In this document: positions 15,857 through 47,922 of the stretch, in pieces
Layout: the number at the start of each line of letters is the position of its first letter
Position numbering within the stretch: the stretch's first letter is position 1
Source: a virus
Direction: 5' to 3' (one strand)
DNA length: 64,000 nucleotides
Virus record (IMG/VR): IMGVR_UViG_3300021197_001752
Span: 32,001-96,000 of that record
The notes under the pieces: generated by a model
What the model saw: only the letters and a program-made list of their open reading frames with translations
Told to the model about the DNA's origin: nothing
Databases searched by the model: none
Made by a program: the position numbers and the translations under genes

Positions 15857-16846
15857 TTAAGTATTGTTTATTATATCGCAAATATATTGAGACGCTTTAC
15901 CATCGCCATAAGGACATACCTCTTTGGATAGGTCTACTTTAGTAGCCCAAGTGTCTACTAGATTTTCTAAACATTTTGGTTCTTTGCAGAGAACCGAAAA
16001 AGTATCGAGGCCTTCCACTCTTTCTGTAAAGTCACGGCAAACAATACATGGTTTCTTGAGGAAAGCAGCTTCTTCCTGTACACCTCCACTATCAGTTATT
16101 ATAAATGCACAAGTTGAAAGTTGCTCTATGAATTCTGCATGTCCTAGCGGATCTATAACATTTACGTCAGTTAGGATACTAGAATGCTTTTTAACTTCTG
16201 GGTTGGGGTGGATTGGTAAAATAAACTCAAGGTCTTTATATTTTTGAGCTAAATTGTTTACTACCTTAAACCATTCCTGTATCTCATCTAACTTTTCACG
16301 ACGGTGTAATGTAACGACAACTTTATTAGATTTATGAATAGTCACGTCGGACAGGTTATCTAGAACAGTATTACCCACTATATGAATATTAGTACGACCT
16401 TCTTTTTTAAGATTACTGGCTGATATATCTGTTGGGCACAAATGGATTTCTGCTAGTGCAGAAATAGCACATCTATTAAACTCTTCTGGGTATGGACTGT
16501 ACTTGTCAAATGTTCTTAGTCCTGCTTCTAGGTGTGCTACTGGTATCTTTCTATGGAAAGCTGCCAATGCTGTTGCAAATGCAGAGGTAGTATCACCTTG
16601 CACCATTACACATGTTATATCGACAAATATTTCTTCTTTGTTTAATATTGATTGTATAATCGAATCTAATCGGTTACCGTTATCTAAAATTTCTAATACA
16701 TGATCTGGTTTATTTGCCTTCTTTAATAGGTCAGTGTGTTGTCCTGTGAAGAAGGATTTGAACGGCATGTTCCGCTTTTTCATTTCGTTTATCACAGGAA
16801 GTACTTTTATGTACTCGGGTCTTGTTCCGTAAGTTATAAGAAGCAT
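15857..16846 (-). CDS. wecB: UDP-N-acetylglucosamine 2-epimerase
   Basis: GTRPEYIK, TGQH, QGDTTS, HLEAGLRT, PEEFNR, TDSGGVQEEA, YGDG. Confidence 0.95.
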   Translation of the reverse strand: MLLITYGTRPEYIKVLPVINEMKKRNMPFKSFFTGQHTDLLKKANKPDHVLEILDNGNRLDSIIQSILNKEEIFVDITCVMVQGDTTSAFATALAAFHRKIPVAHLEAGLRTFDKYSPYPEEFNRCAISALAEIHLCPTDISASNLKKEGRTNIHIVGNTVLDNLSDVTIHKSNKVVVTLHRREKLDEIQEWFKVVNNLAQKYKDLEFILPIHPNPEVKKHSSILTDVNVIDPLGHAEFIEQLSTCAFIITDSGGVQEEAAFLKKPCIVCRDFTERVEGLDTFSVLCKEPKCLENLVDTWATKVDLSKEVCPYGDGKASQYICDIINNT

Positions 16847-16848
16847 GT

Positions 16849-17250
16849 TTACTCGGTAAGGTATTTTACAACAAGGTCATGAATTTTCTCGTCAACATTT
16901 AGTTTCCAAGAATCGTCGCCTTCAGTAATTTTAGTTCTAATATCAGTCGCAGAAATAAATCCGATGTCTTTAGGTGGTACATGTTCTATAATGCCATACC
17001 CGACGCCACGTCCATAATTCACAGAATCTATGTCTGGTATAACCATCACCACTACATCATGATCTTCATATGCCTTTTCTAACATCTCTACTGTCTGTTC
17101 TGTAGTAAAGGGGTTTTTGTCGTCAGGTGGAATATCTCTGACACATATCAAAACAGGTAAGCCCTCATCAAGCTTTTGTGACATAAGCCATTTATGACCA
17201 TTATGAAACGGTTGCCACCTACCAATAAACATTGCTCTTCTGGTACTCAT
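16849..17250 (-). CDS. Small HxGH cytidylyltransferase-like nucleotidyltransferase
   Basis: FIGRWQPFHNGH and ISATDIR motifs. Confidence 0.85.
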   Translation of the reverse strand: MSTRRAMFIGRWQPFHNGHKWLMSQKLDEGLPVLICVRDIPPDDKNPFTTEQTVEMLEKAYEDHDVVVMVIPDIDSVNYGRGVGYGIIEHVPPKDIGFISATDIRTKITEGDDSWKLNVDEKIHDLVVKYLTE

Positions 17251-18194
17251 CGGTCTTCTCCTTCTAATAGATCTCTAACTGTGTCTGTCCAGTTTCTAAA
17301 TTTATATGCTCGATCATCAATATACGTGTCGGCTGGAATCTTGAAATTGGATACCTCATCAAAGTATTTTTTTAGACCTCTTTCCTCTAACCAGGCTTCG
17401 ATTACAGATGATGGTCGGGACGATAAGATTACTAACCTCTTACCAGCGTCTTTGAGAACCTCAAATGCAGCCTCTGCGCCGTCCATTGGGTCATCGTATG
17501 CGTTCATCAAACCCTTGAAACCTTGACTATATTTGTGTATCACACCATCAAAATCAATTGCAATAGTTCTTTTTTTGTCTAGCACATTAACCTCGCTTAT
17601 AGTGGAGAAATAACCACTCTCTTCTAGGTGCTCAACGATGTGATTGGCGCACTCTTCTACACTAAACTCTGCCGTATTCACAATGATTTCTGGACTTCTG
17701 GGCTTTTCATAAGGAGCACTAATACCAGTAAAATTAGGTATTTCTCCGCTTCTTGCTTTTTTATATAACCCCTTAGGATCTCTAGCCTCACACGTTTCTA
17801 GAGGAGCTTTTACGTGTATCTCTATAAAGTCTTTTCCAATTATTTCTCTTGCAAATTTTCTGCTCTTACGGTATGGTGAAATAAATGCTGTACACACTAT
17901 TGTGCCAGATTGTCTCAATAAATTAGCTACCTCTGAAATCCTTCGGATGTTCTCTTTTCTATCATCTGGTGAGAATCCAAGGTCGTTGTTGAGGCCAAGC
18001 CTAATATTATCCCCGTCAAGTGTGTGGGTCTGATACCCTTTTCGGAATAATAATAGTTCTACTGCATTGGCTAATGTAGATTTACCTGATCCTGATAAAC
18101 CAGTAAACCATAATACTGCTGGCTTATGTTTATTCTTCTGTATCTTCTCTTCAGTCGATACTGTTGTATTATGAAAGTGTAAGTTGTTTGTCAT
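17247..18194 (-). CDS. cysC: Adenylyl-sulfate (APS) kinase fused to a C-terminal HAD-like domain
   Basis: WFTGLSGSGKST, LDGDNIR.GL, RDPKGLYKKAR.GEI.NFTGISAPYE; C-terminal IAIDFDGVIH...YIDDRA. Confidence 0.95.
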   Translation of the reverse strand: MTNNLHFHNTTVSTEEKIQKNKHKPAVLWFTGLSGSGKSTLANAVELLLFRKGYQTHTLDGDNIRLGLNNDLGFSPDDRKENIRRISEVANLLRQSGTIVCTAFISPYRKSRKFAREIIGKDFIEIHVKAPLETCEARDPKGLYKKARSGEIPNFTGISAPYEKPRSPEIIVNTAEFSVEECANHIVEHLEESGYFSTISEVNVLDKKRTIAIDFDGVIHKYSQGFKGLMNAYDDPMDGAEAAFEVLKDAGKRLVILSSRPSSVIEAWLEERGLKKYFDEVSNFKIPADTYIDDRAYKFRNWTDTVRDLLEGEDR

Positions 18195-18397
18195 TTTTTT
18201 ACCCCAAACTTAGAGAAATTATACCACACTCTTTCATGGGCATAATATAGAAATATTTTTGTTATTAACTCAACAGCACCGATCTTCACGCCAATCATTG
18301 GGTCGCCAGATATTAGCCAACCCAACAACATTGTGTCTATTGTCCCAACAGCACGCCAGCTTATCGCTTTTGCCAAGTGTCTTTTCTTTGCTACCAT
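18191..18397 (-). CDS. DUF2061 small membrane protein
   Basis: RHLAKAISWRAVGTIDT...KIFLYYAHERVW. Confidence 0.9.
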   Translation of the reverse strand: MVAKKRHLAKAISWRAVGTIDTMLLGWLISGDPMIGVKIGAVELITKIFLYYAHERVWYNFSKFGVKK

Positions 18398-19350
18398 ACG
18401 AATGTTTTCTTACAATGCTTTACAATATGTATTATTTCTTCATCGAAATCAAACTTTGGCTCCCAGCCCAGTTTCCTCAACTTGCTATCGTCTACAGAAT
18501 ATCGAATATCTTGACCCTCCCTCTCATAAGAAAAGTCTAGATATTTATCATAATCAATGTTTTCTTCCTCTAGGTAGCAGTCTATCACCTTCTTGACCGT
18601 ATCAACGTTTTTTTGTTCAAACCCGCCAGATATATTGAAAATTTCATTTTTTGCGCCAGACTCCATAATAGTAATAATAGCGTTTGCAGTGTCTGCTGCA
18701 TGGAGCCAATTTCTAGTCGGTTCACCCTTGTTATGAAGTCTTATTTTTTTCCCTCTTTGTAATAGTTTTACAGACAAGGGAATTAACTTTTCTGGGTACT
18801 GAAATATACCATAGTTATTGGTAGGTCGGACAATCACATATTCTGTGCCATAAGTCCTATTCCATGATTTGATCAAATGATCTGCGGCTGCTTTGGTTGC
18901 TGAATATGGATTACTAGGGTTCAGAGAACTATCTTCTGTGAATGACCCGCTTTCAAGATCGCCGTATACCTCATCAGTGCTAAAGTGTAGTAAGATTGGT
19001 CTTTCGCAAACATTACTTGGTTTGTTCTGGATAATCTTTAGTAGATTTTGAACACCACTAATGTTTGTGTTGATAAAGTCTGTGTTATCAATTATACTGT
19101 TCCCAACATGCGATTCGGCAGCTAGATTTATTATGTAATCACAATCAGGGATAGTCTCAAGATCACAAATATCTTTTTGTAAAAAAGTAAAACCTGGTAA
19201 GTCCTTGAATGTTTGCACGGCTTCCATATTAGCCGCATATGTTAGTTTGTCTATACCCAGAACCAAATAGCCTCGTTGGAGTAATTCACTTGTAACATGT
19301 GAGCCAATTAACCCCATGCACCCTGTAACTGCCACTATCTTCATTTGCAA
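18391..19350 (-). CDS. rfbB: dTDP-glucose 4,6-dehydratase
   Basis: TGCMGLIGS, DKLTYAAN, AAESHV, STDEVYG, PYSATKAA, NNYG..QYPEKLIP. Confidence 0.9.
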   Translation of the reverse strand: MQMKIVAVTGCMGLIGSHVTSELLQRGYLVLGIDKLTYAANMEAVQTFKDLPGFTFLQKDICDLETIPDCDYIINLAAESHVGNSIIDNTDFINTNISGVQNLLKIIQNKPSNVCERPILLHFSTDEVYGDLESGSFTEDSSLNPSNPYSATKAAADHLIKSWNRTYGTEYVIVRPTNNYGIFQYPEKLIPLSVKLLQRGKKIRLHNKGEPTRNWLHAADTANAIITIMESGAKNEIFNISGGFEQKNVDTVKKVIDCYLEEENIDYDKYLDFSYEREGQDIRYSVDDSKLRKLGWEPKFDFDEEIIHIVKHCKKTFVW

Positions 19351-19775
19351 TACCCCACGTAGTCACTGCACACACCATAAGCGTTTGTTGATAATACCAT
19401 GTCAGTCTCCTTTTTTGTATGACATACTATAACAGATCTTGGGGTAAGTTGTTTACCTGGATATGTCCAAATGAAACGATTACTTGTTATAGTGTAGTGA
19501 TCAGACTCGTGCCAAAAGCAATGGGCACCTATGTTTAATAGATGTTCTAGTGCCTCGATGTTTTTAGCATGGCACCATAATTTTGGGCGTAATAAGAAAT
19601 CTGTGGTTATAAGATGTGTTGGCTTATCATGACCTAGGTATATTTTATTATCAATAGACCACACGTCTATTTCCACGTCAAATCCTTGATTGATTACTTC
19701 AGCAATTTTTGCAGGGCTGTTCTCGGTTTCTTCTTCTGGTCCAAAAAGATTGCCCCTGTGAGATACTAATAACAT
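19341..19775 (-). CDS. Small glycerophosphodiester phosphodiesterase (PLC-like) domain protein
   Basis: SHRGN...ENSP...DVEIDVW...LGHD...WCHAKN...GVCSD; start moved to MLLVSHRG. Confidence 0.75.
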   Translation of the reverse strand: MLLVSHRGNLFGPEEETENSPAKIAEVINQGFDVEIDVWSIDNKIYLGHDKPTHLITTDFLLRPKLWCHAKNIEALEHLLNIGAHCFWHESDHYTITSNRFIWTYPGKQLTPRSVIVCHTKKETDMVLSTNAYGVCSDYVGYCK

Positions 19776-19776
19776 A

Positions 19777-20652
19777 TTATTTGTAAAACTCCGCTCTAGT
19801 GTATGCCCAGTTGCACATACCACCATGGCTTACCACATGTCCCATACTATTGAAGTTATGCCAGCCATTGCTTCGACCCCAGTATATCTCTTCAAAATCA
19901 TACTTGAGGTCTAATATTTGTTGTTTATAGTTTTTCCAGTTTGGCTGCATCTGGTTATAATTCCACCTAAGATCACAAAATCCTATCTCGCCAATATCTC
20001 TAAATGAACAATACTCTTTTAGTAAATCTGGCCAGTTCTTATCTTCGTAGAGTAAAGCTTGTGGGTTGTAAGGCATAGGTGGGATTTTACCAGAAAAGTA
20101 TTTTACAAATGATATACCTGTGTGTCTTAAACCGTCAGCATGAAATGGTTCATTGTTTTTATCCCATATAGAGCCCAATAGATCAATCTCTCCATACATA
20201 AAGCAATCGCCAAATTTATACAGTTCTTTACCAGTCTGCTGTGTCAAGAGAATCATTTTATCTTCTGATTTTATTATGTCGTGGCAATACGATATAATAT
20301 CTTGCTTTGCTATTACAGAATCACCCCTGGTTTTTAGACAATAATCAAAACCTTTTTCTTTTGCGTGTTCTATTCCTAGTGATACAGATTTGTATTGGGC
20401 TGGCATATTGATTACAGTACCGCCGCTATCAACTGGGTGTAAGTCTTCCCAGATAACTTTATCGCAAATATCCTTTGTAGAGTTATAGGGCTCGTGTCCA
20501 TGTCCAACTAAAATTATGTACGCATCAGGATTATTGTTTCTTAAGCTTTGAATATTTGTATCTACTATTTCCTGTTTAGCTAAAAACCCAAGGCTACCTT
20601 GGGGGTCATAATCTGGAATGTGTATCTGCGATACAATACAATTATTTTTCAT
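19777..20652 (-). CDS. Glycan-biosynthesis protein (GT-A/WavE-like)
   Basis: QYKSVSLGI...LKTRGD...GDCFMYG resembles the WavE-like neighbour; lies within the glycan island. Confidence 0.5.
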   Translation of the reverse strand: MKNNCIVSQIHIPDYDPQGSLGFLAKQEIVDTNIQSLRNNNPDAYIILVGHGHEPYNSTKDICDKVIWEDLHPVDSGGTVINMPAQYKSVSLGIEHAKEKGFDYCLKTRGDSVIAKQDIISYCHDIIKSEDKMILLTQQTGKELYKFGDCFMYGEIDLLGSIWDKNNEPFHADGLRHTGISFVKYFSGKIPPMPYNPQALLYEDKNWPDLLKEYCSFRDIGEIGFCDLRWNYNQMQPNWKNYKQQILDLKYDFEEIYWGRSNGWHNFNSMGHVVSHGGMCNWAYTRAEFYK

Positions 20653-21271
20653 ACTGATACCCAAACAACTCTATGTCTTTTGCGTATAGTTTAGCAACTT
20701 CAGCGGCACTTTCTTCATCATAATGTTCTGTGTAATGCCCATGGTTAGTAGGTCTATGCTGTGTAGAAAATAAGTGTTGATAAAACTTAAACCCCAATTT
20801 GTTCATAAGGACTTTCATATCCGCTTGGATATTTTCTACCCTTAGGATCATATCGACGGCCCTATCCTCTGTATGAGTATAAACATGCTGAGGGAGAAAA
20901 TGAACATCATTTATCCACTTGCCTTCACCGATCCTCATAACAAAATCTTTAAAATCCTTATACTCAGACAATAACGGTTCATCATATCGTATCAAGCCAG
21001 AGTACTCATGTTTTCTATTTTGTGTAAAGTCCATATAGCCTGATAACAACCTAGACCAAGGATTCCTAACAGCAGCAAATGAATAATACCTGTGGTAGTC
21101 AGGCTTTATATTTAGGATCTGTTGGTAACTCATATGGTGTATATGTGGCTCTGGGTCGGACCTATCGTTACCCTTAAGTTCATATAAATCCTTGAGTAGC
21201 ACATGAATTGAAGACCCTGCTGCTTTTGGGTTGTGTACGAATATTATTTTCTTTTCATCATCTATAAACAT
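20642..21271 (-). CDS. Sulfotransferase family 2 protein
   Basis: FVHNPKAAGSSI (5'-PSB loop), VRNPWSRLLSGY (3'-PB), HFLPQ, Y.KDIELFGY. Confidence 0.9.
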   Translation of the reverse strand: MFIDDEKKIIFVHNPKAAGSSIHVLLKDLYELKGNDRSDPEPHIHHMSYQQILNIKPDYHRYYSFAAVRNPWSRLLSGYMDFTQNRKHEYSGLIRYDEPLLSEYKDFKDFVMRIGEGKWINDVHFLPQHVYTHTEDRAVDMILRVENIQADMKVLMNKLGFKFYQHLFSTQHRPTNHGHYTEHYDEESAAEVAKLYAKDIELFGYQYEK

Positions 21272-21274
21272 ATT

Positions 21275-22054
21275 TTATCTATCATAATAACTTTGGACAT
21301 ATGGGTTCATAAAAGAAAATGTAGCTCCACACTGCGCCCAGCGAGCAATGTATTCTCCCAGTCTATTAATATCAAAAACTTTGAAATATTTATCAAATGT
21401 AGAATGTATATTTTCTTCTACGCCGTGCCAGGTATCCCTAGGTATTCCTGAGCCTATTAGGAAGATGTGCGCCAAAGAAACTTCAGCACTATTAAGCGTT
21501 TGGTCTATATCCTCCTCTTTCTCTAAACCTGGTAACACTATATGATCCCTGTAATATGCTAATGCTATCTTTAGACCATTGTGAATACTTTCTCTTTTGC
21601 AAGCATATATGTGGTCTCCTATGTGATAAGGTGAGCCCATATGAGCCCTCTTATAAAAAATATTACCACAAATAAATTTATGGCTTGATTTTCTAAGTTC
21701 TTTTTTGATAATCGAGAAATCTTCGTAATATTCATCCGAGCGCATTTTTATGATATAATCTGCCGATGATTTCTCTAGACCATTATATGTTGACAAACAA
21801 GCCCAGTAATATGTGGAACAACCAACGATTCCCTTGTACGGTTCACCAGTTGGATCAGCAGGTCGCTGAGGTAGCTCTTCTGATGTTATCACCACATTGT
21901 TATAATCTGATAGCTTCTCTATCCAAGTGCCTGAATCTTCATGGTCCCATGTAGAAATTATAACTTTGTTAAATTGTTTACACAACACATCCATCTTCGA
22001 TAAGAAGACATTGCTACCATCAATGGGTCCTTGAATGATTAGATCAATATTCAT
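21275..22054 (-). CDS. WavE-like polysaccharide synthesis protein
   Basis: IIQGP...VIISTW...STYNGL...IKMRSD...HIGDHIYA. Confidence 0.75.
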   Translation of the reverse strand: MNIDLIIQGPIDGSNVFLSKMDVLCKQFNKVIISTWDHEDSGTWIEKLSDYNNVVITSEELPQRPADPTGEPYKGIVGCSTYYWACLSTYNGLEKSSADYIIKMRSDEYYEDFSIIKKELRKSSHKFICGNIFYKRAHMGSPYHIGDHIYACKRESIHNGLKIALAYYRDHIVLPGLEKEEDIDQTLNSAEVSLAHIFLIGSGIPRDTWHGVEENIHSTFDKYFKVFDINRLGEYIARWAQCGATFSFMNPYVQSYYDR

Positions 22055-22055
22055 T

Positions 22056-22538
22056 TTACCTTGACAAATTCACATAAGTTGGTTTTCCATTATACATGAT
22101 ACCTTTAAATAAACGTTTCATATCTTCAGGGTCTTCAGGCCAGTGCTTTTCAATATTCTTGAATCCGCTAAGGTGTTCCTTGTCATCAGTCGCCCAATGT
22201 GACCAGCCTAACCAAAGATAATCTTTATCCCTACCCGCACCAATTAATTTGACTGGGATCTTCTCATAATCAACGTAGTTTCTAATAAATTCAAATGGTC
22301 GATACAATGTGAATGGCGTCATTGAATAACATACTACAAGCTTACCCTCTTGGGCTAAGCCAATACTCATCCCCATCATTAATTGTTCTGCTGCGCCTGG
22401 GTTGATAACTCTGTCTGGGAACTCTTCACGAATCTCATCAAAATGTCCATAACCTAAATCACCAACGACAAAAACAATATTTTCGTTTTCTTTCATTTCT
22501 TCATGTAATAAACTGACAAATGTTTTTCTAACGCTCAT
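22056..22538 (-). CDS. Transketolase-like pyrimidine-binding subunit (short)
   Basis: GDLGYG...PDRVINPGAAEQLMMGMSIGLAQEG...RPFEFIRN...G.SHWA. Confidence 0.88.
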   Translation of the reverse strand: MSVRKTFVSLLHEEMKENENIVFVVGDLGYGHFDEIREEFPDRVINPGAAEQLMMGMSIGLAQEGKLVVCYSMTPFTLYRPFEFIRNYVDYEKIPVKLIGAGRDKDYLWLGWSHWATDDKEHLSGFKNIEKHWPEDPEDMKRLFKGIMYNGKPTYVNLSR

Positions 22539-23172
22539 TATTCAACATCTCCGTACCTAGTTTGTAATCTTCCGCTGAAAGCTTGCAATAGTGTGCATCA
22601 AGATCTTTCAAAAATGGGAAATATGAGTTGACATCGGTTTTGTGAAAGTGTATCCTTGGCAAGAAAGCTTTACAGCGACGCTCAAGATACTCTACATCCA
22701 CTGGGTCATAACAAGCCCATCCATTAGCATTGACATAAATTTCCATATTGTCAACATTATATTCTTCTATGTATCTTAGTGCTTCCCAGACTGAACCTTC
22801 TGCACATTCTCCGTCGCTAACCATAACATGAACCTTGCGGTTCTTATTAGCCAGTGCCCGACCCACAGCGATCACTATACCAGAACCCAGGCTACCAGTT
22901 GATACATAAATGTGATTGTCCTCATCCCAATTAGGGTGTCCGCCGTGTTTTTCTACTAGAGCATCTGCGTCAATATGATCATAATATTTTTCTAATACCA
23001 CGTATAAAGCATAAGCAGCATGACCGTTTGATAACACAAATATATCATCTTCATTTTTGTTTTTGAAGATCTCGTCAATTATATCCACACATGTAAAGCA
23101 ACTCCCAACGTGTTCCTCGTTGTGATCATATAGAAGTTTTAACAATCTTTGGTGTAAGACTTTATCGCTCAT
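22528..23172 (-). CDS. Transketolase-like TPP-binding subunit
   Basis: HVGSC...LSNGHA...GHP...STGSLGSG...SDGECAEGSVWEA...N. Confidence 0.9.
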   Translation of the reverse strand: MSDKVLHQRLLKLLYDHNEEHVGSCFTCVDIIDEIFKNKNEDDIFVLSNGHAAYALYVVLEKYYDHIDADALVEKHGGHPNWDEDNHIYVSTGSLGSGIVIAVGRALANKNRKVHVMVSDGECAEGSVWEALRYIEEYNVDNMEIYVNANGWACYDPVDVEYLERRCKAFLPRIHFHKTDVNSYFPFLKDLDAHYCKLSAEDYKLGTEMLNNER

Positions 23173-24335
23173 TTCATCCCCAATGTCTTGCTCATTCTGG
23201 TCATGTGACGTCCACCATCAAACGATGAGTTCTTCCATAATTTCACCATACTATCAAACGTAGACTCGCTAACATACTTACTAGGCACTGAGAACCAGTT
23301 GGCACAGTTGTGGGTCATCGCATGTTCCGCTGTATATTCATCAAATACTAAAGCTGCAATAGTGCCATTCATATTACTCGCTAATATATTTACACCCTGA
23401 CCTGTACGGCAAAAGCCGATGCCAAAGTCACAAATGTTGTTTTGGATTGCCCTAATCGCTTGAGATACATAATCATTGTAATCACAACTTTGATTTACAT
23501 AAGTACCAAAATCAACATAAGGTATATTATTAGCCTCTAATACTCTCCTGGCCATTTCTTTAGCCTCGAACCCTGAATGGTCGCAGGCGATAGCTATAGG
23601 CTTCTGTCCAAATCGTGGTGCTACATGATTGACAAAGAACTCCAACTCTTGTGGTGTTCCCAGGACATGCATTTTCTCTACCTGATGAATGCCAACTTTA
23701 GCACCGTCTCGGATCATATGATTATACATTGGACAGATATAGAACTCATTCTTTACACGAATATTCTTTTCGATCATCTCTTCCGCATACTGAATGAACA
23801 TCTTACCAGTCTTGTAATAATATACACCTACAGCAGCATTTTGGCTGATTACTTCCTTCTCAGCCGTTCTGGTTGCATAACCTTCCTCGTTCATTTCTAC
23901 ATAACTATGGGCTGGACTGTTCGCTTTGAACGTTAGCAAATATCCATCCATCTCTTCTGGCACAGAGGCTGGGTCAAACTGGTTTTCGTAATATACATCA
24001 GGCGTATAAATAAACAGAGGCAAATCATTGTCAATATATTCTCTAGCCAATAAACAGGTGGACACTGATCCATCGGTGATATGATCGACAACGACAATTT
24101 TTACGTCTTCACCAAATTTATCCCTCAATATTTGATCGATTGAGAAGTTGTGAATATGATCTAGGCGCACTGCAAAAATAAGATTGCAATCATCTACCTT
24201 GAATGCATCCATAGCCCAATCAATAACATGTCTGGTATTTGCCATGATTAGCGGCTTGGGCATAGTGTAGCCCTTATCTAAAAACCTCTGTGCTCTACCT
24301 GCTACAGGTAGCAATACGTTATATTTCTTTGTCAT
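23169..24335 (-). CDS. Sugar-phosphate nucleotidyltransferase fused to an RpiB/LacAB sugar-phosphate isomerase
   Basis: PVAGRAQRF..GY.MPKPLI (NTP_transferase); IACDHSG...DFGT...CRTGQGV...FDGGRH..R (RpiB). Confidence 0.9.
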   Translation of the reverse strand: MTKKYNVLLPVAGRAQRFLDKGYTMPKPLIMANTRHVIDWAMDAFKVDDCNLIFAVRLDHIHNFSIDQILRDKFGEDVKIVVVDHITDGSVSTCLLAREYIDNDLPLFIYTPDVYYENQFDPASVPEEMDGYLLTFKANSPAHSYVEMNEEGYATRTAEKEVISQNAAVGVYYYKTGKMFIQYAEEMIEKNIRVKNEFYICPMYNHMIRDGAKVGIHQVEKMHVLGTPQELEFFVNHVAPRFGQKPIAIACDHSGFEAKEMARRVLEANNIPYVDFGTYVNQSCDYNDYVSQAIRAIQNNICDFGIGFCRTGQGVNILASNMNGTIAALVFDEYTAEHAMTHNCANWFSVPSKYVSESTFDSMVKLWKNSSFDGGRHMTRMSKTLGMK

Positions 24336-24337
24336 CT

Positions 24338-24673
24338 TTACCCCTTATAGGCTCTAATATTTTTTATTACACCATCTTGACTATATGTGATGATGTCTGC
24401 TACTATTATTTCTTGCTTGTCTAGAGTTATCACAATTTCCGCTGTGGCGGTCAAGAGAAGCTTATCAACAGTGCACCGTGTTATATCAACCTTGATATCA
24501 TCTACACTATCAAATAAACCCCTATTTGCTTCTAGGACTTTTTCCCTACCATGGCATTCAACATCCCAATCCATAAGTGACACAGTGCTACTATAAAGCT
24601 CTTTTAGTGCGTCCAAATCCTTACGTTCAAATGCAGAAAAGTATTTCCAAGTTAGTTGATAGAGATCCATCAT
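24338..24673 (-). CDS. SnoaL/NTF2-like protein
   Basis: YFSAFERKDLDAL..LY...L.DW...GRE.V...I..IRAY. Confidence 0.8.
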   Translation of the reverse strand: MMDLYQLTWKYFSAFERKDLDALKELYSSTVSLMDWDVECHGREKVLEANRGLFDSVDDIKVDITRCTVDKLLLTATAEIVITLDKQEIIVADIITYSQDGVIKNIRAYKG

Positions 24674-25548
24674 TTTACCCCTTGAATAAAGTCTGTAGCA
24701 TATGCATGTGCATACTCAACATTTTTCTTTATATTATTTGGATCTTTCTGTGTGCTATGCATAAAACCTGCTGCGAATGCATCGCCAGCGCCTAGCACAT
24801 CTAACTTTACATCATTTATGTATTCACTACTGACCATGAAATCATTACCCTGTGCGCTAACGAAGCTGCCTCTAGGGCTATGTACGATTGCTGCTGATCC
24901 AACGGATTCGCCGAGCGACATCGCTGCATATATTTCATATTGTTCGCCCGTAACACTTGTGGCACTATCATCCGATGTAATCACAAAATTCATATTTCTT
25001 ACTAGATTCATTATTCTCTTCCTCTCTGCGCTGCTGTGTGCAGCCAAGCAGAAGTCTGCGGATATTATACTAGTTTCTGGGATTTGTGTAAACATTTTTT
25101 TATCTACTCCTAATAAAGTATCTAAATACATGAAATGGTACCACTTTGATTTGGGTAAAATAAAGTCAGAGCTTATCTTACAGGCTCCCCAGTTGACTAT
25201 ACTGCTTCTTCTTTGTTCTTCTGTTTCACATATTATAAAGGCGTTTGTTGTAGGTATCTCTGCACGAGCTACATGATAGTCAAAATTTGGATTCTTGTTT
25301 TTATATTCTTGTAACCTCTCTATTACATCACTGCCCTGTTTATCATTCCCTACTACTGTAGAAACAAATACTTTATACTTTTTATCTATTTCACATAAAC
25401 CTCGGGCGGTATTCATAACGCCGCCAAGGTCAGTCTTTGTTGACAGCCCTAAATTAGATACACCTACTTGAAATGAGTTGGTTGCTTGTACTGTGTCTAG
25501 GAATATATTTCCGACTATGCAGAAATCAAAACTTTTCATTTTTGTCAA
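24670..25548 (-). CDS. PfkB-family carbohydrate kinase
   Basis: GGVMNTA...VGNDKQG and DVLGAGDAFAAGF signature. Confidence 0.9.
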   Translation of the reverse strand: MTKMKSFDFCIVGNIFLDTVQATNSFQVGVSNLGLSTKTDLGGVMNTARGLCEIDKKYKVFVSTVVGNDKQGSDVIERLQEYKNKNPNFDYHVARAEIPTTNAFIICETEEQRRSSIVNWGACKISSDFILPKSKWYHFMYLDTLLGVDKKMFTQIPETSIISADFCLAAHSSAERKRIMNLVRNMNFVITSDDSATSVTGEQYEIYAAMSLGESVGSAAIVHSPRGSFVSAQGNDFMVSSEYINDVKLDVLGAGDAFAAGFMHSTQKDPNNIKKNVEYAHAYATDFIQGVK

Positions 25549-26062
25549 GTGCTTCTATATCTTCCATGGTACAATCATTTATTAGTCCACGCTCAAGCAT
25601 CACTCCAACCATTTCCATTATTACGTTACAACCAGCATTGCTTTGGAGAACATTATGATAGCCAAACGCAGAGGTACAAAGCTTTTTCACTTCCCAATTG
25701 GCATCTGCGGGACAAAAAGGATATCTGACGGCCTGTAAGATACTACTATCGAATAAGTCATCGCCAATATAAGCCATGTGTTCAGGAGTTGTATTGTATT
25801 TTTCCTGCAACTCTGGGATGAAGTCTACCTTGTCTTTTCCACGAGCATAAAAGAAATCAATGTTTCGATTTTTAGCCATAGCTTGATTGACAGTATCATC
25901 GCCTGATAGGAAGCAGACATCTATGCCAGCGCCACGAAGCCGCTTGATTGCAGTGAAGTCCTTGTCACAATACGTTTTAGCAAATGGCATACCATCTAAT
26001 CCATAATATTTTCTGCCATCCGTCAGTACACCATCAATGTCCAATATCACTAATTTAATCAT
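25526..26062 (-). CDS. kdsC: KdsC-family HAD phosphatase
   Basis: ILDIDGVLTDG...AYIGDDLFD...CPADA. Confidence 0.8.
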   Translation of the reverse strand: MIKLVILDIDGVLTDGRKYYGLDGMPFAKTYCDKDFTAIKRLRGAGIDVCFLSGDDTVNQAMAKNRNIDFFYARGKDKVDFIPELQEKYNTTPEHMAYIGDDLFDSSILQAVRYPFCPADANWEVKKLCTSAFGYHNVLQSNAGCNVIMEMVGVMLERGLINDCTMEDIEALDKNEKF

Positions 26063-26802
26063 ACGAATCCTCTGTCTTCCTTTGTAATATTATACTGCTT
26101 AAGCAAAGGGGTAATTTCTTGTTCATATTCTCCAACATTCCATTTCCCTTTCACAATGGCAGTCGCAATATACGGATATGTACTTGAGTCCCAGTGGTAC
26201 ATGCCACGTCTCTTCTCACCATTATATGTGTAAAGACCTTGAATGTTAAGTTGTTTACATATTTGTGAAGCCATTATCTCAAACTCGTGGATTTTATCAA
26301 TATCCGTTTCGGAATATATTTCAAGTAAATCTTCTGTTCTCCACAATGAGGGCTGCACAGCAAACAGAAAGTCAGGGTTGTGTTCTAACAAATGGAACCC
26401 ACTGTGGTTTTTGAATTGCACATCCCGATGGTTTTCCCGATATAATCCACCCTTTATGAATTTTATGTAACTAATGTCTTCTTCATCTAAGATTTCTTTG
26501 CTTTTTTTTATGCCCTGATAATCAGGAGCATCATACAAAATCATATCTTCATGATGAAAGATACAGTATTCTTCATCGATGTGTCTAAGGCAATGCTCTA
26601 CTCTTTTATCATACTGGTCATTCTCGCTATAATAAATTGCATCCCAGTGATCAGGCAAGAGGTTCTCTGTATCTTTGTCGATAAAAGCATATTTTTTTAT
26701 GCCTGTTAGGTGTTTATCAATTTGACCAGTAAACATTTCCCACACATCACTGTAATCGCTATGTGAGTACATAATGATAGCTATATCCTGCATGTTATTC
26801 AC
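26059..26802 (-). CDS. Putative glycosyltransferase (GT-A-like)
   Basis: SDYSDVW...HHEDMIL (DxD-like)...QPSLWR...VKGKW; glycan-island context. Confidence 0.55.
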   Translation of the reverse strand: MNNMQDIAIIMYSHSDYSDVWEMFTGQIDKHLTGIKKYAFIDKDTENLLPDHWDAIYYSENDQYDKRVEHCLRHIDEEYCIFHHEDMILYDAPDYQGIKKSKEILDEEDISYIKFIKGGLYRENHRDVQFKNHSGFHLLEHNPDFLFAVQPSLWRTEDLLEIYSETDIDKIHEFEIMASQICKQLNIQGLYTYNGEKRRGMYHWDSSTYPYIATAIVKGKWNVGEYEQEITPLLKQYNITKEDRGFV

Positions 26803-27625
26803 CTGTTATATCAATGTAGCTTGTTTTTTCATATAGCCCTATATCTTTAAAAAACCACTTATAGAACTTATGATTATCAATGCACTGCCATTTATCAAAC
26901 TTAACCAACTTGTCTGTTCGATAATCTTTTGGCTTCTCTTGTTCATTACTAAACTCGTCTTCGGAATTACTATCAAACCAGCCCTCGGTGATTGATTTAT
27001 AATAATCGCTACCAGGTGTATAATACTCCTGTATTTTGTCATATGCACTGCCAACCAAATCCATATTCTCGCTGTTAGAATAAAACCAATGGTCAGCATA
27101 TCCCCAGTTCATCTGATCCCAGTAGGCAGCGTACATCTTATTCATATCTAAGGTTGGGTCAAAATTTATATTGGTTACATAATATGTCTGCGGGTGCTCT
27201 TTACCTCTAGTGCCAATATCGGTTCTAGCTAATATTACTGCATCATACTTAAAGTTGTTCTCTTTCTCGTGTTCTGCTTTTATTTCAAGGACTCTTTTGC
27301 GAGAGTACAGAAAACTGAATGTTTGAAAGATAGAATTGCTTTTATACATTGTTCCGCTACGATCAAAGCCATCATCAAACCATCCCTGGTCCATAGAATC
27401 TAGTTCACTCTTGAAATCTCTTTGTTGTTCGTATTGGACTTTAATGGGATCATACATATGGTGTATCATGTTTTTAACACCTTCGCCTTGTTCCCAACAG
27501 TGAAAAAACACATCCACATCATTGTTGCTCATTACTTTTCTTTTTAAATATTCCCAAGATGCAAAGGCGGCGTTTTCTCCGCCGCTATTCAAAAAGTATC
27601 CGTGGAAACATAGAGCTATCTTCAT
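26795..27625 (-). CDS. Putative glycosyltransferase-like protein
   Basis: MKIALCFHG...DVFFHCW...YD.VILARTD...ADHWFY; glycan-island context. Confidence 0.55.
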   Translation of the reverse strand: MKIALCFHGYFLNSGGENAAFASWEYLKRKVMSNNDVDVFFHCWEQGEGVKNMIHHMYDPIKVQYEQQRDFKSELDSMDQGWFDDGFDRSGTMYKSNSIFQTFSFLYSRKRVLEIKAEHEKENNFKYDAVILARTDIGTRGKEHPQTYYVTNINFDPTLDMNKMYAAYWDQMNWGYADHWFYSNSENMDLVGSAYDKIQEYYTPGSDYYKSITEGWFDSNSEDEFSNEQEKPKDYRTDKLVKFDKWQCIDNHKFYKWFFKDIGLYEKTSYIDITGE

Positions 27626-28242
27626 TTTATTCTACAATCTTTGAAAAGTGTAAATTCTGTCAAATCTCTATAAGGAGGGGACTCTGGAATATCAGGGTTG
27701 ATCCTGGGGAAGTTTTGCATCAAGGATAAACCATGAGCAGCCTGTTGCGGAGTCATATACATATTCCAGCCCAGTGTTTTTATATCATCGTCCTGATATC
27801 TGATTCCTTCACTGCGCCCCTCATAGCGAGCCTCTCTGGCCCAGTCAGATAATTCTTTACTATCAGTTAAAATCATACCACCCTTACTAATCTTGAGGTG
27901 CTTTTTGATATGAAAGGATAAGCACATATGTGTGCCTGGTCTATACATATCAGTTGTAAACCTCTTAGCTGCGTCAAAGATTGGAAACGGCTTCAACTGA
28001 TAGATCCCTTGCCAACATAGGTCTTCAAATACCACCTCTCCACCAGCGTGCATGATAGATTGTGGTACTGATAGATAAGTTTGCCTAGGTATCGTTACCT
28101 CTTTATTTTTGACGCCCTCAAACATACAGCACAAAAACAATGCATTAGTACAGGAATCTAGTGATACCGCATAAGGTGCACCTGTATAATCAGCCACCGA
28201 TTGCTCGAACATCTTTACTACTTCATATGGATTCTGTTTCAT
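27622..28242 (-). CDS. DegT/DnrJ-family PLP-dependent sugar aminotransferase (short)
   Basis: FEQ.VADY.G..YAV.LDSCTNAL...DAA...SFH.KK....GGMILTD...G.N.YMT; start moved to MKQNPYE. Confidence 0.85.
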   Translation of the reverse strand: MKQNPYEVVKMFEQSVADYTGAPYAVSLDSCTNALFLCCMFEGVKNKEVTIPRQTYLSVPQSIMHAGGEVVFEDLCWQGIYQLKPFPIFDAAKRFTTDMYRPGTHMCLSFHIKKHLKISKGGMILTDSKELSDWAREARYEGRSEGIRYQDDDIKTLGWNMYMTPQQAAHGLSLMQNFPRINPDIPESPPYRDLTEFTLFKDCRIK

Positions 28243-28636
28243 CTTCTTTTTCCAAAATATAATATTTCTTTTTAAAGCCGCATGACTCGAATAGTTTAAG
28301 ACTAGCATCATTTGCAATCTTAACCTTAGCATGTGAGTATGGCTTTTGCTCCATTACATGATTGATAAGTATTTTACCGTAACCATTCCCACATTCCTCA
28401 GGCAGTACAGCTATTCTTATGTCGCCCTCAAGGCTACCAACAAATCCAACAGGTACATCATCCTTTAGCAAGATCCAATAATTTCGAGAATGCTGCTTCA
28501 TATATTTTCTATGTGTCGCTGGGAAGATCTCTTCTTGTTGTATAAACCCTTGTTTAACATCAGGGTGATTCCGTAGGTTACGAACAAATTCCCAATGTTC
28601 TATTTGACAACTAACAACTCTTATTTTACCACTCAT
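28223..28636 (-). CDS. GNAT N-acetyltransferase (PseH-like)
   Basis: RN.PDV...PVGFVG...GNGYGK...NDASLKLFESCGF; adjacent to the aminotransferase. Confidence 0.85.
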   Translation of the reverse strand: MSGKIRVVSCQIEHWEFVRNLRNHPDVKQGFIQQEEIFPATHRKYMKQHSRNYWILLKDDVPVGFVGSLEGDIRIAVLPEECGNGYGKILINHVMEQKPYSHAKVKIANDASLKLFESCGFKKKYYILEKEDETESI

Positions 28637-29414
28637 CAATTTGATTCCCATATTGACTATCACTTTTCATCCAATATGAAGTCAGATACCCTCTAGTAAA
28701 ACGCCATCCTTCTAAATTCTGATAAGGATTCAAGGCGCTCCCAGTGTCTAGGAACGTATTGCTTTGATTCTCTTTGAAGCACTGATGTATTACAAAATTA
28801 CTCAGGCTAGCCGCAGAGCAAAGAACAATGTGATCTTTGATATTATTCTTTTCGATGTATTCTTTGACTTGATCGACAGTATCGTAATTGTCAACCATGC
28901 AGTTGCTTCCTATGCGAAATTCCTTCTTTACTTTGAAGGGTAAGCCAGAGAGATCTGCCATCTCGTTGACAATATAAATAATATCCCTATCATTGAACAA
29001 TGGGACTACTTCTTCAACATATCTTGAATAGTTGGAATTGATAAACACATTAGCAAAGGTAAGGTTATCTTCAAACCCTTCTCCGTGGAGATCCATCTGC
29101 CACTTGAAATTCTCTTCTCCGACATCTGTTTTAGTACAAATGCCTTTATAATAGTTGTCAGCCTTATATTGGAAGCTTTCAATAAGCTTTTCACGATGAA
29201 ACTGGTGTTTATTTGGTAAGAATTCTTTTTGTTCTTCTTTGGTATATATGTTATGACCAATACGGTCACCTGTAACAAAATACCCAGGAGCTAATACAAC
29301 TGTTTGGTTCTGCATTATAAACATTTCGCCGTCAGAGAACCGAGCGAAGGCAAAGTTATCTCCTGATTCTAACTTTGTTTTAAACCTATCAAATTCTTGC
29401 TTAAAATCTTTCAT
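28626..29414 (-). CDS. GT-D-fold (DUF1792-like) glycosyltransferase
   Basis: FAFARFSDGE...LDTGS motifs. Confidence 0.65.
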   Translation of the reverse strand: MKDFKQEFDRFKTKLESGDNFAFARFSDGEMFIMQNQTVVLAPGYFVTGDRIGHNIYTKEEQKEFLPNKHQFHREKLIESFQYKADNYYKGICTKTDVGEENFKWQMDLHGEGFEDNLTFANVFINSNYSRYVEEVVPLFNDRDIIYIVNEMADLSGLPFKVKKEFRIGSNCMVDNYDTVDQVKEYIEKNNIKDHIVLCSAASLSNFVIHQCFKENQSNTFLDTGSALNPYQNLEGWRFTRGYLTSYWMKSDSQYGNQIDEW

Positions 29415-31054: not shown

Positions 31055-32307
31055 TATAGCGTGCCAACTTGATTTATATCTGACTGCCATTCTTTACTAG
31101 TGTCAGGGCTGACCTTTAGAACTGCATCAACTACCTGCTTTTGGATAATATCTTCTGAGTGTGTCTCAAATAAGCTATCCTTTAGAGCCATTGCTGTGTT
31201 CTTCTTGGCTTTATGATTTTCATAAAGCTTTCTCATAGTAGACTTTGATTTGTGTTCTTTTGGATAACACCACTGACTATCCTTTTCAAGGACGTTTTCC
31301 CAAACAGCTTCTTCTTGGATAGGTGCTATATCATAGCCAATCTTTTCAAACATGGTTTGTCGGCTAACTTTACCATTACTCTTATTTTTATTGATACACA
31401 AAAAGTCCATATGACCTGACCAACCTGGCGCAGCGATTGGCATACCACTATATGCCGCCTCAAATAACGGAAGACCATACCCTTCACCATGTGTTGTAGT
31501 AACATATGCTTTGATCTTAGGGTGTAAGTAGATCCCGTGTATCTCTTCCTCGGTCATGTTACCATGCAATAAATGCACGCCGCATTTCTTATCTGGGAAT
31601 GGTTGCAAGATCTGCTTAATCATATCTGTACACACCATCCTGTCAGATAAACAGTTTTTGGCTTTATTTGTTTTTACCACTAAACCAATTTCTTCATCAT
31701 GGAATTCTTCAACAAACCATTTGATCAAGGCAGACAAATTCTTCCTCGGACCCCATTGAGAAATAGTGAGAAAGTTGAAGTCATGAGGCAGGTCGATTTT
31801 ATCTGATAAATCTTCTGGTTCTGTATACTTCACAGGGTAATTAATAATCTTTGTATCAGTGTTATATTTGAGGGGTACAACTTGACCGTTAGGTAAATTT
31901 ACCTGTACGTCGTTTCTCATAAAGCCATCGAGAGCATGTTTCGATGTTACTATCATTAAGTCCATCTCGTTTGCAAATTGAATCCAGCCAGGTGAAACTC
32001 GATCGGATTCAATACCTGCTGTGACACCAATATTCTTGGTTGCATACTTTTTAAACTCAGGTGGTATTGTAACTTGAATAGACAAATCGAATGGACCGTT
32101 GAACTGCTGCTTTTTCTTGGCTAAGAAGTCATAATATTTTCTTCTATGGTCGAAGTCAGTAATCCATGGAGTATTACCCCAGTTGATAGGCTCAAGATAT
32201 AAATCAAATAGTTCTGGCCTAGTAGACAATGCATCCACTATCATTCTAGCATGTTCGCCATAACCACTTCTCGTCAGTACTGGTGCTCTAACAAATACTT
32301 TTTTCAC
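31054..32307 (-). CDS. Glycosyltransferase family 4
   Basis: SGYGEHAR...RKNL...HGEGYGLPLFEAAYSGMPI. Confidence 0.9.
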   Translation of the reverse strand: MKKVFVRAPVLTRSGYGEHARMIVDALSTRPELFDLYLEPINWGNTPWITDFDHRRKYYDFLAKKKQQFNGPFDLSIQVTIPPEFKKYATKNIGVTAGIESDRVSPGWIQFANEMDLMIVTSKHALDGFMRNDVQVNLPNGQVVPLKYNTDTKIINYPVKYTEPEDLSDKIDLPHDFNFLTISQWGPRKNLSALIKWFVEEFHDEEIGLVVKTNKAKNCLSDRMVCTDMIKQILQPFPDKKCGVHLLHGNMTEEEIHGIYLHPKIKAYVTTTHGEGYGLPLFEAAYSGMPIAAPGWSGHMDFLCINKNKSNGKVSRQTMFEKIGYDIAPIQEEAVWENVLEKDSQWCYPKEHKSKSTMRKLYENHKAKKNTAMALKDSLFETHSEDIIQKQVVDAVLKVSPDTSKEWQSDINQVGTL

Positions 32308-47144: not shown

Positions 47145-47220
47145 TGGTGCCCAAAGTAGGACTTGAACCTACAACCTTCGGTTTACAAAACCGCTGCTCT
47201 ACCAGTTGAGCCATTCGGGC
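47145..47220 (-). tRNA. tRNA-Thr(UGU)
   Basis: GCCCGAA...anticodon loop UUUGUAA...GGUUCAAGUCC...UUUGGGC-A-CCA. Confidence 0.95.
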
Positions 47221-47221
47221 A

Positions 47222-47298: not shown

Positions 47299-47307
47299 AC
47301 AGTTCTG

Positions 47308-47910: not shown

Positions 47911-47922
47911 CTCGAAACTCCT

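Follow-up and report, generated by a model that had tools for sequence, protein, structure and literature searches.

In a marine phage, the genes for synthesis of PAPS, the sulfate donor, form a tightly coupled set, in which the first step would be taken by a candidate very small enzyme. This protein is a nucleotidyltransferase with the HIGH signature (NT; P0001), and from its gene context and from patterns of gene loss we infer that it is probably a miniature ATP sulfurylase (ATP + sulfate -> APS + PPi), whose family would descend from HIGH nucleotidyltransferases of the NadM/PPAT kind and not from Sat. The NT family is large and previously unnamed, no paper that names it having been found in the literature, and there is a good probability that it represents a third, miniature type of ATP sulfurylase. 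It is fairly likely that this class is evolutionarily independent of the other two and the smallest known (a single domain of ~130 aa with a NadM/PPAT-like ancestor), that it alone activates sulfate in whole lineages (Dadabacteria, small marine Flavobacteriales and a group of Nitrospiraceae), and that marine phages have spread it widely in a portable cassette for PAPS that also includes DUF2061 and a mini-HAD phosphatase.

The PAPS gene set of the phage

All genes from 24335 to 15857 of the window (the whole 64,000-nucleotide stretch analysed) run in one direction, and neighbours either overlap or lie no more than 3 nt apart (Table 1). An ATGA stop-start overlap is present at both the DUF2061/APS kinase and the APS kinase/NT junctions, confirming the translational coupling of these three genes that a preliminary description of this DNA had reported. 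The UDP-GlcNAc 2-epimerase gene, the final gene of the glycan island, starts 2 nt past the NT stop. The same description placed the sulfotransferase upstream in the same operon-like run; the gene is indeed co-oriented, 2.2 kb upstream of the DUF2061-APS kinase-NT set, but a terminator-like hairpin and T-run (20603-20587; a consensus match only) lie directly past its stop.

Table 1. Features of the PAPS gene set and its neighbours
Feature	Coordinates	Strand	Basis or position
UDP-GlcNAc 2-epimerase	15857-16846	-	PF02350, 252 bits
Candidate miniature ATP sulfurylase, a HIGH-signature nucleotidyltransferase (NT, P0001), 133 aa	16849-17250	-	PF01467, motifs
APS kinase with C-terminal HAD domain (P0002), 315 aa	17247-18194	-	TIGR00455 and HAD match
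Capless HAD phosphatase domain of P0002, residues 200-315	17250-17597	-	Motifs, predicted fold
APS kinase domain of P0002, residues 1-199	17598-18194	-	PF01583, 222 bits
DUF2061 protein (P0003), 68 aa	18191-18397	-	PF09834, E 2.3e-21
NAD-dependent epimerase/dehydratase	18391-19350	-	Between sulfotransferase and PAPS module
161-aa protein without family match	19341-19826	-	Between sulfotransferase and PAPS module
295-aa protein, weak WavE-like match	19777-20664	-	Between sulfotransferase and PAPS module
Sulfotransfer_2 sulfotransferase (P0303), 209 aa	20642-21271	-	PF03567, E 1.6e-19

The kinase of P0002 scores 260 bits on TIGR00455 (cut-off, 138.7) and 270 bits on NF003013, and has the APS kinase motifs GLSGSGKST (P-loop), DGD and FISPY, with catalytic columns that are invariant in the alignment. 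Its HAD domain has the motifs DFDGV, a conserved K and DD, with D15, D17, K86, D94 and D95 (domain numbering) invariant; the predicted model (pLDDT, 92.3) resembles BT_0820 (2obb; Z 11.9, 101 residues aligned, 2.7 Å). In other phages the counterpart of this domain is a stand-alone 122-aa gene placed between APS kinase and NT. We can only guess at PPi or PAP as its substrate. The DUF2061 protein, a predicted two-helix hairpin, accompanies the module repeatedly, in 19 of 44 viral loci, and is fused to the N terminus of APS kinase in loci L003-L006. Sulfotransferases of the Sulfotransfer_2 family are defined by a 5'-PSB motif, PKxxGS/T, and a 3'-PB motif, RxPxxRxxS. Both PAPS-binding motifs are intact in P0303 (PKAAGSS, residues 15-21; RNPWSRLLS, residues 69-77), which scores 71.5 bits on PF03567 against a cut-off of 22 and is the presumed PAPS consumer.

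The absence of Sat and CysD from the window, noted previously, extends to the whole 146.7-kb virus record, in which PF01507 (CysD/CysH) has no match and the sole match to Sat (PF01747) is NT itself, at a sub-threshold 14.9 bits; as the record is ~81% complete, this absence is provisional. The earlier term "self-contained" for the sulfation pathway is too strong, since no sulfate uptake gene was identified and removal of PAP by the HAD domain is a guess.

Sequence and fold of NT

NT is a member of the HIGH-signature nucleotidyltransferase superfamily, as judged from its match to PF01467 (CTP_transf_like; 31.7 bits against a cut-off of 21, E 2.1e-7), its HxGH and ISxTxxR motifs and its Rossmann-like fold. 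The motifs read G10-R-W-Q-P-F-H-N-G-H19, with H16-N-G-H19 at its end, and I99-S-A-T-D-I-R105, and an alignment of 53 sequences extends these to a family signature of GRWQPxHxGH, R38-D, N46-P47, P72-D73, G80-R81-G-V-G84-Y85 and I99-S-A-T-x-I-R105. The superfamily catalytic residues G10, R11, H16, G18, H19, S100 and R105 are invariant or nearly so over hundreds of diverged NT sequences. The preliminary description had taken HNGH and ISATDIR as evidence for Sat, but HxGH and ISxTxxR are common to NadM, PPAT and NaMNAT, and GRWQPFHNGH is the NadM form.

The best family and PDB sequence matches of NT are to NadM (1ej2, E 2e-7), whereas the similarity to PPAT is insignificant by sequence (E ~0.7). 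The NadM matches are partial. NT scores 44.2 bits on TIGR01527 against 181.2 and 54.1 on NF002243 against 127, over residues 5-77 only, and the HMMER alignment with 1ej2 pairs NT 1-67 with NadM 1-69 and NT 99-125 with NadM 130-155. The stretch between strand 3 and SxTxxR, which binds NMN in NadM, has 31 residues in NT versus about 60, and the near-invariant, family-specific R38, G80-R81 and G84-Y85 stand where NadM has GSAQ and the NMN-binding segment.

The proposal that NT is a stripped-down Sat was rejected. On PF01747, NT scores 18.4 bits against a gathering cut-off of 24.3 (E 1.5e-3; residues 13-71 aligned with positions 29-89 of the 212 in the profile), and hhalign gives a probability of 19%, placing the NYGR of NT near the RNYGC of Sat with low confidence only. 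The Sat hallmarks QxRNPxHxxH and VGRDHAG, which read FQTRNP[IM]HRAH and FIVGRDHAG in the true Sat sequences fetched, are missing, and NT is a single domain of 133 aa in all, without the N-terminal PUA-like domain or the ~380-400 aa length of Sat. The superfamily fold is shared with Sat: an AF2 model (pLDDT, 95.8) matches many superfamily members at Z above 10, and is nearer to NadM (1f9a; Z 14.3, 127 residues aligned, 2.5 Å, 26% identity) and PPAT (4nah; Z 13.7) than to Thermus Sat (1v47; Z 10.5, 126 residues aligned, 2.7 Å) or other Sat structures (Z 7.3-8.8). What survives of the earlier claim is the function, as a candidate: comparative genomics gives strong support to NT as the source of APS for the neighbouring APS kinase.

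Linkage to APS kinase and distribution in bacteria

An NT homologue (42-92% identity) is present in 44 viral loci. In 41 of these an APS-kinase match lies ≤2.7 kb from NT, mostly directly adjacent, in the order APSK-NT in 29 and NT-APSK in 12. This linkage is far beyond chance. The two proteins are also fused, as NT-APSK in P0127, P0136 and P0210 and as APSK-NT in P0129, P0131, P0145 and a Saprospiraceae locus (L064), and one relative carries a fused DHH/DHHA1 domain, from the family that includes pAp phosphatases. Two observations count against the sulfurylase reading: some fused relatives (P0133, P0264) lie on phage contigs without an APS kinase nearby, and the fusion of Xylella phage Bacata adjoins NADAR, a hint of chemistry on NAD/ADP-ribose.

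A Nitrospiraceae lineage has, at four loci, an operon of sulfite reductase, thioredoxin-dependent APS reductase (TIGR02055, 273 bits) and NT. The only Sat homologue of this lineage is a Sat-CysC-like protein whose Sat motifs are decayed in three genomes (QTRNP to QTRHP or QTQSL; VGRDHAG to VGWDYAS, VEPNYAA or VGQDYAS), with the kinase P-loop intact. In a sample of 114 Dadabacteria genomes NT is present in 76, Sat in 18 and both in none (Fisher 8e-11), and in a sample of 201 Flavobacteriales genomes NT is present in 8, CysD in 142 and both in none (Fisher 3.9e-5); neither test is corrected for phylogeny, and a small number of evolutionary events may underlie each result. The remaining Dadabacteria genomes are mostly of ~1 Mb and have ~300-aa CysD-like ORFs. 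Five complete Dadabacteria chromosomes, in which Sat and CysD are absent, have a CysP-type sulfate permease adjoining APS reductase, and APS kinase as well. In about 60 Dadabacteria loci, on the other hand, the neighbours of NT are housekeeping genes and not sulfur genes, which counts against the proposed function. The marine Flavobacteriales cluster consists of APSK, NT, an unknown gene, a CysQ-like gene, Wzx and two sulfotransferases; no Sat was found in 10 NT-bearing Flavobacteriales genomes checked and no PAPS_reduct (CysH/CysD) match in 5. Canonical NadD and CoaD, which Dadabacteria and the small marine Flavobacteriales retain, are present in five NT-bearing cellular genomes, so that these cells already have enzymes for what the closest structural relatives of NT do.

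NT and the known sulfurylases do sometimes co-occur. Three large Saprospiraceae/Chitinophagales (Bacteroidota) genomes with APSK-NT also have CysD above the cut-off, beside CysH, and one other NT-bearing genome has a true Sat. These cases fit a second, sulfation-dedicated system but weaken the complementarity argument.

Proposed pathway, alternatives and known enzymes

In the pathway that we propose, H16 and H19 of HxGH with S100, T102 and R105 of ISATxIR would bind ATP and stabilise the pyrophosphate as it leaves, a role that these motifs have throughout the superfamily. A family-specific loop, IPDIxSVNYGRGVGY, appears to replace the NMN-binding segment of NadM and, with Arg38, would provide two extra near-invariant arginines suited to a small anion such as sulfate. 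The sulfurylase reaction is very unfavourable, which would account for NT being translationally coupled or fused to APS kinase; the kinase would pull APS on to PAPS, and the phage Sulfotransfer_2 enzyme would then sulfate a glycan that the 17-kb island around these genes produces. Two further roles are guesses: removal of PPi, or of PAP as a by-product, by the HAD domain of P0002, and anchoring of the module at the membrane by DUF2061.

It is possible, though unlikely, that NT nucleotidylates a different substrate linked to APS/PAPS metabolism, a metabolite or a small anion such as selenate or another oxyanion, that it consumes APS in a reverse or exchange reaction, in the manner of an ADP sulfurylase, or that it makes a 5'-adenylylated compound which the "APS kinase" then 3'-phosphorylates, as in the pairing of PPAT with dephospho-CoA kinase. 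The linkage and fusions would suit any route that adenylylates and then 3'-phosphorylates, PPAT is a near-top structural match, and the extra arginines show an anionic substrate and no more. Nevertheless, the partner kinases are orthodox APS kinases, well above equivalog cut-offs, the Nitrospiraceae neighbours are APS reductase and sulfite reductase, the step without an enzyme in Dadabacteria and Flavobacteriales is APS formation itself, and NT carriers have a canonical CoaD.

A truncated NadM-type NMN adenylyltransferase, serving phage NAD salvage or counter-defence and with an incidental or regulatory adjacency to APS kinase, is improbable. Such an enzyme would explain the NadM sequence and fold matches, the identical GRxQPFHxGH and the NADAR neighbour in Bacata, and many phages carry NadM-Nudix genes. 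Yet the scores are far under the NadM cut-offs, the alignment skips the shortened middle segment, no NAD genes are near NT, either in the window or in those related loci that were examined, linkage and fusion to APS kinase occur in both orders, NadD is already present in NT-bearing bacteria, and incidental adjacency cannot explain the sulfite reductase-APS reductase-NT operon. Still more doubtful is the idea that NT assists APS kinase without catalysis of its own or as a regulator, e.g., as a nucleotide-sensing subunit, with APS supplied by host Sat or CysDN. Degenerate sulfurylase-like domains do exist on APS kinases (the Nitrospiraceae proteins; PDB 3cr8, "Hexameric APS kinase from Thiobacillus denitrificans"), and some NT-bearing genomes have CysD or Sat, but the near-invariance of the catalytic residues argues against it, as do genomes with APS reductase or APS kinase and without Sat/CysD, which need a catalytic source of APS.

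As a candidate miniature ATP sulfurylase, NT can be set against four known systems. NadM (TIGR01527, NF002243; 1f9a, 1ej2, 2qjo) is its top match in sequence and fold and shares GRxQPFHxGH and the C-terminal SxTxxR helix, whereas NT is ~30 residues shorter, has VRD for GSAQ and NYGRGVGY for the NMN-side segment, and lies in a sulfur and not an NAD gene context, in carriers that have NadD. PPAT with dephospho-CoA kinase adenylylates and then 3'-phosphorylates adenosine, in parallel with APS to PAPS, but the partner of NT is an orthodox APS kinase and its carriers keep canonical CoaD. Sat, Sat-CysC and PAPS synthase (PF01747; 1v47, 2gks, 1x6v, 1j70) have the superfamily fold, HxxH and [IL]S[GA]TxxR, pair or fuse with APS kinase in either order, as NT does, and in some genomes adjoin APS reductase (Sat-CysH in a sister clade, compared with Sir-CysH-NT). 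NT is one third the size of Sat, lacks the PUA-like N-terminal domain, QxRNP and VGRDHAG, and is nearer to NadM and PPAT, which argues for independent recruitment and not truncation. CysDN (TIGR02039 CysD with the CysN GTPase) occupies the same cluster slot as NT: the typical bacterial cluster is cysDN-cysC-cysQ-sulfotransferase, that of marine Flavobacteriales APSK-NT-CysQ-sulfotransferases, and the two distributions do not overlap in the 201-genome sample. CysDN has, however, an unrelated fold (PAPS-reductase/ATP-PPase type) and is GTP-driven, while NT has no GTPase partner and must depend on being coupled to APS kinase, perhaps with a phosphatase as well.

The putative sulfation module and its surroundings

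The window covers bases 32001-96000 of a 146.7-kb IMG/VR record (completeness estimate, about 81%). It derives from a tailed phage, not in culture, that encodes a baseplate wedge, PhoH and four tRNAs. The sulfation genes named in the preliminary description, including the 133-aa HxGH nucleotidyltransferase (NT; P0001), are present, as judged from profile matches and from ATGA overlaps at both the DUF2061/kinase and the kinase/NT junctions (see the table). The absence of Sat and CysD, noted previously for the window, extends to the whole record: there was no match to PAPS_reduct/CysD and the only match to Sat, below threshold, was to the NT itself. The sulfotransferase (P0303) retains PKAAGSS and RNPWSRLLS, which match the motifs for PAPS binding. 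Every gene of the region has minus-strand orientation; between 24335 and 15857, neighbors overlap or are separated by no more than 3 nt. A strong terminator-like hairpin (CCCAAGG-TAG-CCTTGGG, then TTTTT) occurs 39 nt past the sulfotransferase stop, and a single transcript is hence likely but not certain. This hairpin sits within the 5' end of the next open reading frame, as called from TTG 20664 or ATG 20652. It may divide the putative operon or dampen its transcription; alternatively, the true start of the next gene may lie further downstream.

The module is part of a 17.7-kb glycan island that adjoins genes for the tail and baseplate. The genes scanned in this island, whose glycan is presumably the sulfate acceptor, included neither a flippase nor a polymerase. 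The baseplate wedge has 33% identity to its counterpart in Flavobacterium phage immuto and the APS kinase 59 to 65% identity to marine Flavobacteriales APS kinases, from which a host can be assigned only tentatively. The four tRNA genes are clustered; the tRNA-Arg is 87 to 95% identical to tRNA-Arg genes of unrelated Klebsiella, Citrobacter and Synechococcus phages.

Coordinates of features in the window and in loci (L-numbers) with NT relatives or companion genes
Feature	Sequence	Coordinates	Strand	Details
Glycan island	window	15857-33560	-	UDP-GlcNAc 2-epimerase, epimerase/dehydratase, PfkB kinase, HAD, GT-D-like, GT2, GT4
Split transketolase	window	within 15857-33560	-	pyrimidine-binding half only 160 aa
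RpiB fusion	window	within 15857-33560	-	388 aa, RpiB domain C-terminal
Short DegT-like protein	window	within 15857-33560	-	236 aa
Sulfotransfer_2	window	20642-21271	-	E 1.6e-19
Terminator-like hairpin	window	20603-20587	-	
Epimerase/dehydratase, 161-aa unknown, 295-aa protein	window	between sulfotransferase and module	-	295-aa protein with weak WavE-like match
DUF2061 (P0003)	window	18191-18397	-	E 2.3e-21
APS kinase (P0002)	window	17247-18194	-	315 aa; TIGR00455, 260 bits (cut-off, 138.7)
HAD domain of APS kinase	window	17250-17597	-	residues ~200-315, ~116 aa
NT (P0001)	window	16849-17250	-	133 aa
tRNA cluster	window	47145-48079	-	Thr-TGT, Met-CAT, Arg-TCT, Gly with unusual anticodon ACC
Stand-alone HAD	L016	5636-6004		122 aa
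Stand-alone HAD	L018	5636-6004		122 aa
Stand-alone HAD	L035	363-734		122 aa
Xylella phage Bacata fusion	L008	3596-4336		~245 aa
Stenotrophomonas phage DLP_6 fusion	L009	3593-4324		~245 aa
Sat-CysC-like, Nitrospiraceae	L142	634-2373	-	
Sat-CysC-like, Nitrospiraceae	L152	950-2665	+	
Sat-CysC-like, Nitrospiraceae	L153	783-2522	-	
Bacterial NT homologue	L124	5944-6405		N-terminal extension
Bacterial NT homologue	L084	5914-6420		N-terminal extension
Bacterial NT homologue	L055	5947-6405		N-terminal extension
Unassigned 233-aa protein	L124	6483-7184		counterparts in L121, L127

Affinities of the nucleotidyltransferase

The NT passed only one model, the generic PF01467 (31.7 bits), and fell below threshold for PF01747, the Sat family (18.4 bits). 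The best curated families were NadM NMN adenylyltransferases, far under their cut-offs (54 versus 127 and 44 versus 181). Sequence matches in the PDB were also to NadM, but aligned only residues 1 to 67 and 99 to 125; approximately 60 NadM residues are thus replaced by 31 in the NT. An alignment of 53 sequences defines a family signature of GRWQPxHxGH, R38-D, N-P47, P72-D, G80-R81-G-V-G84-Y85 and IS100ATxIR105. A confident AF2 model (pLDDT, 95.8), ranked with Foldseek and VIA-align, was closest to NadM (1f9a; Z, 14.3; 127 residues aligned at 2.5 A) and then to PPAT (Z, 13.7), ahead of NaMNATs (Z, about 11), Sat of Thermus (1v47; Z, 10.5) and the remaining Sat structures (Z, 7.3 to 8.8). The proposal that the NT is a stripped-down Sat was based on HxGH and ISxTxxR, motifs that are common to the whole superfamily, and the structural comparison of Sat with NadM places the NT nearer to NadM. 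A profile-profile comparison with true Sat sequences was likewise weak (probability, 19%), so that an equivalence between NYGR of the NT and RNYG...GRD of Sat cannot be claimed. Together, the PF01747 shortfall, this low probability and the fold ranking indicate that the NT is neither a member of the Sat family nor a cut-down Sat. Bacterial homologues (L124, L084 and L055) carry a conserved N-terminal extension of about 20 residues (W-[EN]-x-x-N-H-G...P) that is missing from the phage proteins.

Linkage to APS kinase and distribution in cellular genomes

The NT family is large, with 2774 near-length relatives at 90% clustering and 1192 clusters at 50% identity. Among 44 IMG/VR loci with NT homologues (42 to 92% identity), 41 have an APS-kinase match within 2.7 kb, mostly abutting, in the order kinase-NT (n = 29) or NT-kinase (n = 12), although these 44 loci include many near-duplicates and the independent cases are fewer. 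Both orders also occur as single chains, with the NT first in P0127, P0136 and P0210 and the kinase first in P0129, P0131, P0145 and the Saprospiraceae locus L064. The other companions in these loci are DUF2061 (19), the mini-HAD (14) and a related sulfotransferase (only 6). DUF2061, kinase and NT form a triad without nearby glycan genes in one locus (L001), and DUF2061 is fused to the kinase in four (L003 to L006). The HAD domain of the window kinase is of a generic capless type, with all catalytic motifs present (model pLDDT, 92.3); its best match of the same size is BT_0820 (2obb; Z, 11.9), a protein without a known substrate. In other phages it is a stand-alone gene between kinase and NT, directly upstream of the NT and overlapping it. 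The mini-HAD recurs as a fourth component of this module, whereas more distant mini-HAD relatives show no linkage to APS kinase.

Some fusions depart from this pattern and count as evidence against a sulfurylase function. P0264 (432 aa) joins the NT to a DHH/DHHA1 (NrnA-like) domain on a phage contig without an APS kinase nearby. P0133 and P0168 (approximately 375 aa) have a Cys-rich N terminus of about 240 aa with a faint HNH match; no sulfur genes were found on their contigs and no APS kinase near fusions of this type in phage contigs. The cultured siphophages Bacata and DLP_6 encode a truncated APS-kinase-like P-loop fused to the NT (phrog_10255, annotated as "kinase"), in Bacata directly downstream of a NADAR-domain gene. 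All of these atypical fusions keep the family signature.

A scan of species-representative genomes with a 14-sequence alignment as query detected 188 relatives. In a sample of the Dadabacteria phylum (114 genomes), 76 genomes have the NT, 18 have Sat and none has both (Fisher, 8e-11, phylogeny ignored); the other 20 are mostly genomes of about 1 Mb with CysD-like open reading frames of about 300 aa. A CysH-sized PAPS_reduct gene is present in 108 of the 114. In five complete chromosomes of this group, a CysP-type sulfate permease adjoins an APS-reductase-type CysH, with an APS kinase elsewhere, and neither Sat nor CysD was found. Sat adjoins CysH in the Sat-bearing sister group; the neighbors of the NT in Dadabacteria proper are housekeeping genes. 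In a sample of 201 genomes of the order Flavobacteriales, the NT occurs in 8, CysD in 142 and both in none (Fisher, 3.9e-5, phylogeny ignored). None of ten NT-bearing Flavobacteriales genomes checked for Sat had it, and all five of these that were checked for PAPS_reduct lacked both CysH and CysD. A marine Flavobacteriales cluster consists of APS kinase, NT, a conserved 233-aa protein that matches no Pfam family, a CysQ-like Inositol_P protein, Wzx and two Sulfotransfer_1 proteins.

In Nitrospiraceae, four loci have an operon of sulfite reductase, thioredoxin-dependent APS reductase (TIGR02055, 273 bits) and NT. The same genomes encode a Sat-CysC-like protein of about 580 aa, a potential counter-example that was set aside once its sulfurylase motifs were read. 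In all three genomes read, QTRNPxHRAH has decayed to QTRHPLHRVH, QTQSLVHRVH or QTRHPLYRVH and VGRDHAG to VGWDYAS, VEPNYAA or VGQDYAS; the GRD arginine is gone in each, HxxH or QTRNP is changed and the kinase P-loop is intact. These residues have the appearance of decay after functional replacement. PDB 3cr8, a kinase with a sulfurylase-like domain that is presumably inactive, is a solved precedent for such a protein.

Canonical NadD and CoaD both occur in five genomes that carry the NT, drawn from three lineages. The roles of its nearest structural relatives are therefore already taken there, whereas for APS formation there is no candidate other than the NT. Complementarity between the NT and the known sulfurylases is not universal: four genomes carry the NT with CysD or Sat. 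Three are large Saprospiraceae/Chitinophagales genomes with a kinase-NT fusion plus a CysD, above cut-off, that adjoins CysH; the fourth, labeled as a deltaproteobacterium, has a true Sat. A second activation system dedicated to sulfation is a known pattern, as for NodPQ beside CysDN, and by analogy these genomes would be compatible with a sulfurylase function.

A candidate ATP sulfurylase family

We consider that the NT is probably an ATP sulfurylase. In the chemistry that we propose, the superfamily residues would hold ATP and the leaving PPi, and sulfate would bind in a small anion pocket made up of R38 and the shortened middle segment, which contributes R81 and Y85. The APS-forming equilibrium is unfavorable, which would explain the strict coupling or fusion of the NT to APS kinase. 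The HAD domain may hydrolyze PPi or PAP, two roles that the fold search does not separate, and the DUF2061 protein, a predicted two-helix hairpin, is at a guess a membrane anchor.

Searches of the literature on DUF2061, phage ATP sulfurylase or APS kinase, phage cysC-sulfotransferase, Dadabacteria and alternative ATP sulfurylases yielded no paper in which this family or a phage PAPS module is named or described; the papers found for DUF2061 concerned iron or copper regulons, with nothing on sulfate. Databases label the family "cytidyltransferase-like" or, at JGI, "adenylylsulfate kinase," and its ESM Atlas clusters, mostly viral, are labeled only "cytidyltransferase family protein."

All sulfate assimilation, like all PAPS-dependent sulfation, starts with ATP sulfurylase. 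Should the NT family be a third type, genomes now scored as lacking sulfate activation, including those of abundant streamlined marine lineages, would need reannotation and models of ocean sulfate users would change. Many marine phages would then carry their own PAPS route, probably for sulfation of surface glycans during infection, and a sulfurylase of about 130 residues could serve in engineered PAPS regeneration. To our knowledge, only two types of ATP sulfurylase, Sat and CysDN, are taught. The NT family would add a new enzyme family to a reaction and a module that are already known, and its fusions to the kinase in both orders mirror the known fusions of Sat with APS kinase and of PAPS synthase.
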